From an uncultured bacterium (GTDB taxonomy: Bacteria; Margulisbacteria; WOR-1; CAZGTC01), in NCBI GenBank assembly GCA_964528395.1, contig CAZGTC010000001.1, forward strand, positions 30,046 through 94,045: a DNA stretch of 64,000 bases, given 5' to 3'. The number at the start of each line of letters is the position of its first letter. Position 1 is the first letter of the stretch. Shown piece by piece: positions 42,745-45,700 of the stretch. A model generated the notes under the pieces. It saw nothing but the letters and a program-made list of their open reading frames with translations, did not search any database and was not told the DNA's origin. The position numbers and the translations under genes are program-made.

Positions 42745-45700
42745 AGGATTTTCCAGCCGGTTTTTTGCTGCCGTAAAGAGTTTATTACATACATCAGATG
42801 TCTCTTGATTATCAAAAATAGGGGCTTTGTCCCATAGAGAATATAGAAGGGTAATAAAATTTTGTTTATCTTCTGTTGATAATGATGCGATAAAATTAAG
42901 ATGCAGGCTGCTTGCTTTATCCAATACTTCTCTTAAAAAGGGGATGGAAACCGTGTAATCTGGAGAATTATTGTTAATAAGATCGATAAATTTTTTTAAC
43001 TCAAAGAAAAAATCAGATGGGGTGTTGGCAGTTCTTAATGCAGCAAGATATTGTTGTTCTTGAGGGCTAAGATTACTAATCGCAATGTTACTAAATCTTT
43101 TTTTTCCCGCTTGTTTCGCATTTTCAGAAGGAGCTTCTTGTTCAAAATAAGGCTGTCTGGCTTTGTGGCCAGGAACGCGAATAACTGCAACCGTTGTATC
43201 ATCTGCGTCTTTTATTAGTCCAAGTTTGATCAAAGCTTTTACTCTTTCTTCTTCGGTTGTATTTTTTTCGATGGCTTCTTTTATTTCTTCAATTTTGGCC
43301 TTTTCAAAGGGATCAGAAGTTAGAACAAAAAAATCTCCTTTTTTTACTTTTATTTTTATAGTAATAGGGCGAAGAGACAATTGTTTTTCCAAATTTTTTA
43401 CAAGAGTTCGATTTAATTTTGGATCAGCGCAAAGTTGGCGATAGCAAATCGTGCGAGAAGCCCTGTTCGGATACTTAGGATGTGCTTCTCTGCCTTTTTC
43501 GATTATGGCGTTTTGGTAGCGGTTTCCATCTTCTTCGCTGGCAAATGACTTTTGTCTCGTTGTCTTATCAACCAAAAAGTTAGCTAAGTTTTCATAGTGA
43601 GTAAGAATGCGCAACTGTTTTGTTTGGCTGTCATAATAAAAATCCGGGCTATCGCCGATCCAAGTTATTTCCGCCACTGATTCATCTTGATTTACGGTGG
43701 GATAAAGTACAGCTCTAACTAAAGTCGTGCTGCTTCCTTTGTTTGCCGGTTGTTCTTTTGCTATTTTTTTTATGAGGTCAGCAATAAAACTTTTTCCCTC
43801 TTTCCCAATATTTTCTTCTTTAATTGCTTCTTCAAGAACAAATTTGCTTATTGGCAAGCTTTCTTGTGAAGAAGCCCCATCCGTTACTGCAGCAACAATG
43901 GCGCCATATCTTATTTGAGGAGAAAATAATCTCCTTAGTAATCTTTTTGCTGGTGGATAATAAGCTGCTCCAACGCAATCCTTATTCTCTTTTGGTTCCT
44001 GATAATTTTTAGCTAGGCTGCCAATGGCAGCAGAAGCCTCGGGGATCTCTAATATTCCTTGTTCTAATAATTGGCCATTTCTAGAAGAAGGAATTGTTTT
44101 ATCAAGAAATTGCATAGCATCTGCTATGTATTTTTCTCTTTTTTGAACTTTTGACAGAGGAACTTCCCCCAGCCTTAAAAGCACAAGTCCTGAATCGTCT
44201 CCTTTCCTTAAACAAGCGGTTCCAATGGCGCGAAGGGTTTCTGTATCTTCTCTCTCTGTTTGCTCGAGTTCTGCTCTTATGGCAGGAACAGATAAGGCAT
44301 CGAGAGTATCTGATCCAGCTAAGAGGGTTTCTCCGGGTTTCAAATAAATTGTTCTAGTAAAAAAAGGCGCATCTTGAGCAGGAAAAGAGTTTAATAAATA
44401 ATTAAGAAGATATTCTGACGGTGTTTTTCGTCCTGCCTCGTGTAATTGGCTGCTGTTTGTTTCGGATGCATGGGGGTCAAAACCCGGCTGCTTATTTAGA
44501 AAGGTTTGAATATATAGTGATTGCGGGACATTTTCTAAAACTAGCTGTCCATCTTCTCTATGACGAAAAACCGGGCTGTCTCCAACCCAGCTAATTTCAG
44601 TTTCCCATATATTATTTTGTGGGTCAGGAGAAATAACTATGCGGGTAAGAGTCGTGCCTTGATTGGATAAATTAGGTTTTAATGGTTTTTTATTTGCCAT
44701 GGCTAGATTTATTTTTTGCATAGCTTGGCCGCCTGTATAGTGAAGATATTGAGGATCCAAGGCTTCTTGAACTGCGAGATCGCTGTATTCTTCATTATCC
44801 GCAGATGAAATGCCGTCCGCAACAGCGATAATAATACAGCCGCCGGGATAATTTTTATTTTCTCCTTCTTCAATTTTGCGTATGGCAACTACATCTGAAT
44901 TGGTTCTTTGTGCTTTATCGCTTATAGGATGTCCAGCGAGGTTAAATAAAACTGCTCCAGTTGAATGATGAATCCCAAGGCCATTTCTTTGTTTTATTTT
45001 GGCTTCACTTCCATAAAAAGTTTCTATTTCCAGCAAATCCGGCCGCTCGCGAACAGCGGCTAGATTTTTTCTTGCCACATTTTTTCTTATACGAGCAGAT
45101 TCTCCTCTGGTTGTGAGGCGGCGAACAAAGGGGCTCGGCAAACTGTGATAAAGAAGAGAATTTTGGGAAAGCATGCCAAGCTCCGGGTTAAGAATATAAA
45201 TTGCATTATTAATTTCTACTTCTATTACAAAGCGATAAAAATTTTCTCCGGGGCATTGGGCGATTTTTAGAGATGATTGAAAATGGGCTTCTTGCAAGGC
45301 CAGGCAAGCATAGATTTCATTTACTTTTTCTCGGTTAATCAAATTAAGAATTTCCATAAGGATTTGCTCTTCACTTTGCCAAGTTTGCCTTTCCGCTACC
45401 AGAGTTTTTATTTTGGCGCTGATATTTAAAATGTTCTCTTTCTTGAGTTGTATGATAGAAGAAGACAAGCCATTTTCTTCTGGTTCTAAGCTAATAATAT
45501 CGCCTTCTTTTAATATGGAATCCAGATGATCTAATGATGCGTTTATTTCAACAATGTTTTTTTCATGTTCTGGCCCGGAATCAAGATAATTTTCTATGGG
45601 GGTTTTTAATCGGCTGACAGCGGATACAAAAGCTTGAAGTTTTTGTCCTTCAGGGGTAGTTTCTTTGCAAAAAGCTTGTTTTTGGGAAAATAGTTCAGTT

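Follow-up and report, generated by a model that had tools for sequence, protein, structure and literature searches.

The gene described here, P0001, lies in a stretch of 64,000 nucleotides (the window) from an uncultured bacterium of the Margulisbacteria, WOR-1 (contig CAZGTC010000001.1, positions 30,046 to 94,045), and positions given below are counted from the first letter of the window. P0001 is encoded on the minus strand, where its ATG and the stop codon of the upstream gene P0002 overlap (ATGA). The predicted protein of 1164 residues contains two PPM/PP2C-like modules in tandem, joined by a linker and flanked by longer regions at both ends (Table 1). The initial annotation had placed two PP2C-like phosphatase modules at 43174-44982, which corresponds to residues 418-1020 of P0001, and all ten motifs that it quoted were found at the implied residue numbers within the open reading frame (ORF) 42739-46233. 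For module 1 these were AVADG (470-474), GTTLT (526-530), VGDSP (550-554), LLAGSDTL (637-644) and DDSGLVLLRL (679-688), and for module 2 AVTDG (782-786), SSTTL (834-838), IGDSP (859-863), VLTSDP (970-975) and DDTTVAVIRV (1011-1020). Motif 1 of PP2C proteins (N-x-D) was also present in both modules, as RTNSD at 443-447 and KENKD at 748-752. The latter lies upstream of residue 756, where module 2 had been taken to begin, so that the start of module 2 was moved to approximately residue 735 (window position 44031). The long flanking regions, described before as unknown regions of about 400 and 140 residues, correspond to residues 1-427, with no Pfam, NCBIfam or PDB match, and residues 1023-1164, with no family match. 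A hydropathy scan of P0001 revealed neither a signal-like hydrophobic stretch nor a transmembrane segment.

When the two modules were compared with each other by BLASTP, they aligned with 24% identity across 255 residues (E 2e-13). The Smith-Waterman score of the pair was 140, compared to 34 +/- 5 in 1000 shuffles (maximum 62; z 20.6), and by the same method the N-terminal region, the linker and the C-terminal region resembled neither module. The most likely origin of the pair is an ancient duplication, within the gene, of a PP2C domain that had already diverged.

The relationship to known phosphatases was evaluated with profile methods. The NCBIfam model Stp1_PP2C_phos (NF033484) matched the whole of P0001 with E 3.4e-9, module 2 alone with 5.9e-8 and module 1 alone with 0.028. 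Pfam PP2C_2 (PF13672) gave E 0.004 for the whole protein and E 0.011 for module 1 alone, and Pfam SpoIIE, the other family that had been considered, gave no match for P0001 at E up to 10. With 36.6 bits against an equivalog cut-off of 230 for NF033484, and 17.1 bits against a gathering score of 24 for PP2C_2, the scores lay under the curated cut-offs, and P0001 can thus be filed in neither family but only in the PPM/PP2C superfamily. A profile of the two modules aligned by hhalign with three PP2Cs (Bacillus subtilis PrpC, Mycobacterium tuberculosis PstP and Staphylococcus aureus Stp1, the last taken from a PDB alignment) with a probability of 94.7% (E 5.9e-8), and with 15 PP2Cs taken from databases with a probability of 96.1% (E 3e-9, 207 columns). 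In the shuffle control, module 2 alone scored 39 compared to a shuffle maximum of 24.6 (z ~9), while module 1 alone scored 22, which was within the shuffle range, and is not significantly PP2C-like by itself. When a narrow PP2C profile hidden Markov model (HMM) was run over the 294 ORFs of the window, P0001 was the sole match (E 1.3e-7). The PDB sequence search returned weak, non-significant matches only, both of them to PPMs (PppA, E 0.79; RsbX, E 1.7). Pairwise BLASTP against a canonical metagenomic PP2C gave E 3e-6 for module 2; for module 1 (E 4e-4), the N-terminal half matched in register over 111 residues, 31% of them identical. The assignment of module 1 to the PP2Cs is thus based on its homology to module 2, on the register of its motifs and on its own weak matches. 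Taken as a whole, the profile comparisons bear out the PP2C relationship first proposed from the motifs, and the homology they support holds at the superfamily level only.

A chance likeness of the motif series, arising in a low-complexity or fast-evolving ORF that holds no PP2C domain, would be compatible with Pfam matches under the gathering threshold, with the lack of a significant PDB sequence match and with the predicted local distance difference test score (pLDDT) of only 37.6 that AlphaFold returned for residues 418-1020 from the single sequence. It is contradicted by the E values of NF033484 and of the 15-sequence hhalign comparison, by the z scores of the internal repeat and of the module 2 shuffles, and by the occurrence of all six motifs in order and in register in both modules, so that we consider it highly improbable.

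The fold was also predicted for module 2 (residues 735-1022) from an alignment of module 2, module 1 and the 15 PP2Cs; modelling with an alignment covered this module only. The model had a pLDDT of 72.4 and a predicted template modelling score (pTM) of 0.72, with values of 80-93 in the core strands, and showed the alpha-beta-beta-alpha sandwich of two antiparallel sheets that is the PPM fold. Since PP2Cs were present in the input alignment, the fold match is partly imposed by it and gives consistent support, not independent proof, for the proposed PPM fold. At the position of the flap, an insert of approximately residues 882-955 was enlarged and apparently helical, and was modelled with low confidence.

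A MAFFT alignment of 17 rows (the two modules and the 15 PP2Cs) was used to analyze the active-site residues. In each module the six motifs followed one another in the expected order and register. Invariant in 17 of 17 rows were the N-x-D of motif 1, DG of motif 2, TT of motif 5, GDS of motif 6, one proline in the flap, SD of motif 8 and D of motif 11. Each aligned metal-ligand position of PstP was present in both modules (Table 1), including the counterpart of D118, which we take to be the third-metal aspartate of bacterial PPMs. In PPM1A and Lem3, the M1 and M2 metals are held by four aspartates and a glycine carbonyl (PMC10115812), and the equivalents of the PPM1A set (D38, D60, G61, D239 and D282) were kept in both modules of the alignment. 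The glycines of DGxGG, in contrast, are replaced, as had been described for both modules: PstP G41 and G42 correspond to two serines in each (DGxSS). DGxSS belongs to a set of derived states, with GDSP, SD[T/P], DD[S/T] and a basic residue at -4 from the motif 1 aspartate, that the two copies share although they are otherwise only 24% identical. The set is thus probably older than the duplication and was retained afterwards, which indirectly points to constraint on each of the two sites.

In pseudo-phosphatases such as TAB1 the metal ligands have been lost, while the P0001 modules keep them. The retention of four aspartates, the glycine carbonyl ligand and the third-metal aspartate in both copies at 24% identity speaks against both modules being pseudo-phosphatases of this kind, with the PPM fold serving as a binding scaffold without catalysis. 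Nor does the altered motif 2 speak for it, as DGxGG is not universal in active PPMs (RsbX has ADGLGSG). We therefore regard two inactive modules as improbable; the sequence speaks for metal binding, and through it for activity, but is no proof of it.

A second arrangement, with one catalytic module and the other a degenerate regulatory or substrate-docking copy that forms an intramolecular pseudo-dimer, appears unlikely but deserves more weight. Plasmodium falciparum PfPPM2 (PfPP2C) has two PPM catalytic domains per polypeptide and requires dimerisation for optimal activity (PMC8949495). In P0001, the PP2C signal is unequal between the modules (hhalign 39 for module 2 and 22 for module 1), the flap inserts differ in length, and MAFFT and hhalign put motif 1 of module 2 in different registers. 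Against it, every aligned metal ligand is kept in both modules and neither carries a sequence mark of a dead module. The ambiguity concerns D752, whose role as a ligand depends on the MAFFT register; hhalign placed motif 1 on LRRLFSPQ instead. In the PP2C topology a strand is expected directly after the motif 1 aspartate, and in the AlphaFold model D752 is immediately followed by one (CVGAAYY, model residues 19-25), in agreement with the MAFFT register.

We favour, with a confidence that is about even, the reading that P0001 hydrolyses phosphoproteins as a tandem PPM-type enzyme dependent on Mn2+/Mg2+, with metal bound at both sites. P0001 would then be soluble and multidomain, with two PPM (PP2C) catalytic modules in tandem, each of which would build a binuclear, possibly trinuclear, Mn2+/Mg2+ centre, from D447, D473, the G474 carbonyl, D642 and D680 plus D552 in module 1, and from D752, D785, the G786 carbonyl, D974 and D1012 plus D861 in module 2. 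A metal-activated water would hydrolyse phosphoserine or phosphothreonine of protein substrates. The motif 6 and motif 8 aspartates are spaced 90 residues apart in module 1 and 113 residues apart in module 2, compared to 73-74 in PstP and PrpC, which indicates that the flap region is enlarged. The flap of PPMs controls substrate access (PMC3656104), and these enlarged segments between motifs 6 and 8 may set the choice of substrate, while the N-terminal region of 427 residues and the C-terminal region of 142 residues may provide targeting or regulation.

Several observations weigh against two active phosphatase sites. Apart from the scores under the curated cut-offs, the score of module 1 within the shuffle range, the partly imposed fold and the hhalign register of motif 1, these are mainly substitutions of conserved residues. 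PstP R120 corresponds to proline in both modules (GDSP for GDSR), G192 to threonine in module 1 and proline in module 2 (SD[T/P] for SDG), and N230 to serine and threonine, respectively, so that the asparagine of DN is lost (DD[S/T]). The glutamate of N-E-D (PstP E24) is lost as well, with serine in module 1 and lysine in module 2, and the column of the phosphate-binding arginine (PstP R20, PPM1A R33) holds Q442 and P747. Furthermore, Pfam and NCBIfam scans of the larger ORFs of the window, with about ten smaller ORFs left out, revealed no Hanks kinase, FHA, STAS, anti-sigma or partner-switching gene, and the lack of a kinase, FHA or partner-switch gene among these ORFs means that no substrate is pointed to.

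The arginine column also bears on whether the modules hydrolyse phosphodiester-linked modifications, by de-AMPylation (removal of adenosine monophosphate, AMP) or dephosphocholination as in SidD and Lem3, perhaps reversing the action of the Fic protein encoded nearby. The position of R33 is occupied by leucine in Lem3 and by phenylalanine in SidD and was called decisive by the authors (PMC10115812), and the non-basic Q442 and P747 are a hint in this direction. Neither residue is hydrophobic or aromatic, however, and each has a basic neighbour: R443 and K748 stand one position past the column, at -4 from the motif 1 aspartate in both modules, in a loop where the alignment is unreliable to one residue. 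Canonical phosphatases also matched the module 2 model better than SidD and Lem3 did, although this ranking is biased by the PP2C-containing alignment. The Fic gene itself is on the opposite strand, with three genes in between and with its own upstream partner ORF, and its product has an auto-inhibitory SxxxEG motif and is SoFic-like (E 4e-26). On balance, phosphodiester chemistry has a small chance of being correct.

P0001 is an ORFan without detectable relatives in the searched databases. When the whole protein was used to query 5.8 billion clusters by word index and 1.84 billion cluster representatives by an exhaustive HMMER scan, no match besides P0001 itself was returned, and the 90% cluster of P0001 is a singleton. 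The two-module profile had no match with an E value of 10 or less in the 5.8-billion-protein set, in a search that also failed to return P0001, which is present there. Module-derived patterns gave no match in a viral scan and, in the corresponding metagenome scan, only two ordinary PP2C genes, at loci L014 and L015. Both of these PP2Cs are anchored in the membrane at the C-terminus, have ADGMGGH, GDSR, CSDGL and DN, and were 22-23% identical to module 2. The octapeptide EI[TS]WVGDS is common to these two PP2Cs and the modules. Large multihaem-like proteins are encoded upstream in L015.

At its own locus, P0001 is the last of four co-directional minus-strand ORFan genes (in the order P0004, P0003, P0002, P0001), with gaps of 21, 0 and -4 bp. 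None of the four products belonged to a Pfam, NCBIfam, PADLOC or PHROGs family; the only PHROGs line for P0001 had E 0.0047, with no single stretch passing alone. The positions of these genes and of the other features are listed in Table 1.

Table 1. Features of the P0001 protein and gene region, and of two metagenomic loci used for comparison
Feature	Position	Strand	Basis or remarks
P0001 gene, 1164-residue ORFan protein	42739..46233	-	ORF call; 1164 codons
P0001 N-terminal region, residues 1-427, function not known	44953..46233	-	family and PDB searches, hydropathy scan
PPM/PP2C-like module 1, residues 428-690	44164..44952	-	ligands by alignment (PstP counterpart): D447 (D25), D473 (D38), G474 (G39), D552 (D118), D642 (D191), D680 (D229)
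Inter-module linker, residues 691-734	44032..44163	-	outside the PP2C alignments
PPM/PP2C-like module 2, residues 735-1022	43168..44031	-	ligands by alignment (PstP counterpart): D752 (D25), D785 (D38), G786 (G39), D861 (D118), D974 (D191), D1012 (D229)
P0001 C-terminal region, residues 1023-1164 and stop codon, function not known	42739..43167	-	no family match
P0002 gene, 637-residue ORFan protein	46230..48143	-	4-bp overlap with the P0001 gene
P0003 gene, 1124-residue ORFan protein with three proline-rich tracts (around residues 819, 865 and 993)	48144..51518	-	adjoins P0002 without a gap
P0004 gene, 418-residue ORFan protein, proline-rich over much of its length, with a hydrophobic anchor at the C-terminus (residues 381-407)	51540..52796	-	first gene of the run
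Best minus-strand sigma-70-like promoter match, TTGCCA-18-TATAAT (11/12)	52930..52959	-	upstream of P0004; consensus match only
orf224, 224-residue protein of no known family	53085-53759	+	directly precedes the Fic gene
Fic gene	53775-54554	+	intact HPFIDGNGRSAR motif; N-terminal STTIEG (SxxxEG) inhibitory motif
L014, PP2C-FHA locus (metagenome)	289-2055		canonical membrane-anchored PP2C, then a double-FHA-like membrane protein
L015, PP2C-FHA locus (metagenome)	5761-7532		canonical membrane-anchored PP2C, then a double-FHA-like membrane protein

The P0001 gene is probably co-transcribed with the three other ORFan genes, one of which encodes a membrane-anchored proline-rich protein, and, given this probable co-transcription, the four products may act together. 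The sigma-70-like match upstream of P0004 is a possible promoter of such an operon; in the promoter and terminator scan of the region the number of matches was not above that in shuffles. Paralogy between the N- and C-terminal regions of P0001 and the three neighbouring ORFans was tried and rejected (Smith-Waterman z <2). A kinship of P0003 and P0004 was likewise rejected, as the z of 3.3 was due to proline richness, and the likeness of P0001 and P0002 in 'AAQKL..IFS' was attributed to chance. No repeat was detected in the locus at the DNA level.

The G+C content at third codon positions (GC3) was 0.22-0.28 in the four ORFan genes and 0.29 in the pair formed by orf224 and the Fic gene, compared to 0.35-0.56 in the flanking and housekeeping genes. 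These genes form a low-GC3 island at 42739-54554, between tsaB and a Ca2+/cation antiporter gene of the Na/Ca-exchanger family, which suggests an accessory block that either was acquired horizontally or evolves fast. The best PADLOC match of the Fic protein was the SoFic defence family, with the E value given above. Since SidD and Lem3 remove AMP and phosphocholine and a Fic gene is present in the same island, P0001 is a reasonable candidate for non-phosphatase PPM chemistry. By analogy with the AnkX/Lem3 and SidM/SidD pairs, it might be a tandem counterpart of these erasers, i.e. a secreted or island-borne two-module protein that removes AMP or phosphocholine in concert with the Fic protein, with the three ORFan products as co-effectors or scaffold; we give this extended proposal only a slender chance.

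Compared with phosphatases of the Stp1/PrpC/PstP/tPphA type, to which the P0001 modules are only about 22-25% identical, the favoured phosphoprotein hydrolase would differ in several respects. The Stp1/PstP type consists of one domain of about 240 residues, whereas P0001 has two domains in a chain of 1164 residues. The former is paired with a Hanks-type kinase or FHA protein and often has a C-terminal membrane anchor, while P0001 has neither a hydrophobic segment nor a gene for a Hanks kinase or FHA protein beside it; PP2C and FHA genes are paired at the canonical loci L014 and L015 but not at the P0001 locus. In the motifs, the changes relative to this type are GG to SS, GDSR to GDSP, SDG to SD[T/P] and DN to D[S/T], together with the shift of the motif 1 arginine by one residue and the longer flap. 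The partner-switching PPMs SpoIIE, RsbU and RsbX are also distinct, as P0001 has no Pfam SpoIIE match and no anti-sigma or anti-anti-sigma gene was found among the scanned neighbours.

With PfPPM2, P0001 has in common the architecture of two PPM domains in one chain; PfPPM2 is eukaryotic, while P0001 adds long N- and C-terminal regions and has far more divergent motifs. The Legionella enzymes SidD (a de-AMPylase) and Lem3 (a dephosphocholinase) are single-domain proteins, unlike P0001 with its two modules and the basic residue beside the arginine column. SidD lacks the absolutely conserved third-metal-type aspartate (PMC3656104), while both P0001 modules keep it.

Elsewhere in the window, rimO, two small ORFs, recA, rny (RNase Y) and a ymdB-type metallophosphoesterase gene are located at 26591-32473 on the minus strand, and AcrB, a TolC-type efflux protein, a secretin and a hybrid-cluster protein are also encoded. 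Two tRNA-Met (CAT) genes, at 36645-36716 on the minus strand and 38390-38465 on the plus strand, lie 1.7 kb apart on either side of nadA, and no rRNA was found in the window. Low-GC accessory ORFs are present on the plus strand at 34782-36068, 15558-16844, 3333-4406 and 21063-22094; among them are orf428 (GC 0.287), with a weak HEPN_Cthe2314 match, an AAA_14/DUF4143 ATPase (GC 0.326) and two ORFans with a GC3 of about 0.3. A trehalose block at 55766-59948 on the plus strand comprises OtsA, OtsB, DUF5752 and TreT, and as the OtsA and OtsB ORFs overlap by 86 bp, the start of OtsB is probably further downstream.

The fold and the chemistry proposed for P0001 are already known, and P0001 is not a new kind of system. 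What is new is the bacterial tandem arrangement, the extreme divergence, with an ORFan under the Pfam thresholds, and the derived motif set shared by the two modules. A full-text literature search, which did not cover domain-architecture databases, found no precedent for a bacterial tandem PP2C. If P0001 were merely another Ser/Thr phosphatase, the value of the finding would be limited to the annotation of an ORFan. If both modules are active, P0001 would be a bacterial tandem PPM phosphatase, with Plasmodium PfPPM2 as its precedent. For the PPM family, P0001 illustrates that the metal site can persist while nearly everything else changes, to a degree of divergence that escapes Pfam, and the combination of DGxSS, GDSP and a basic residue shifted by one position may serve as a compact signature for finding further hidden PPMs.

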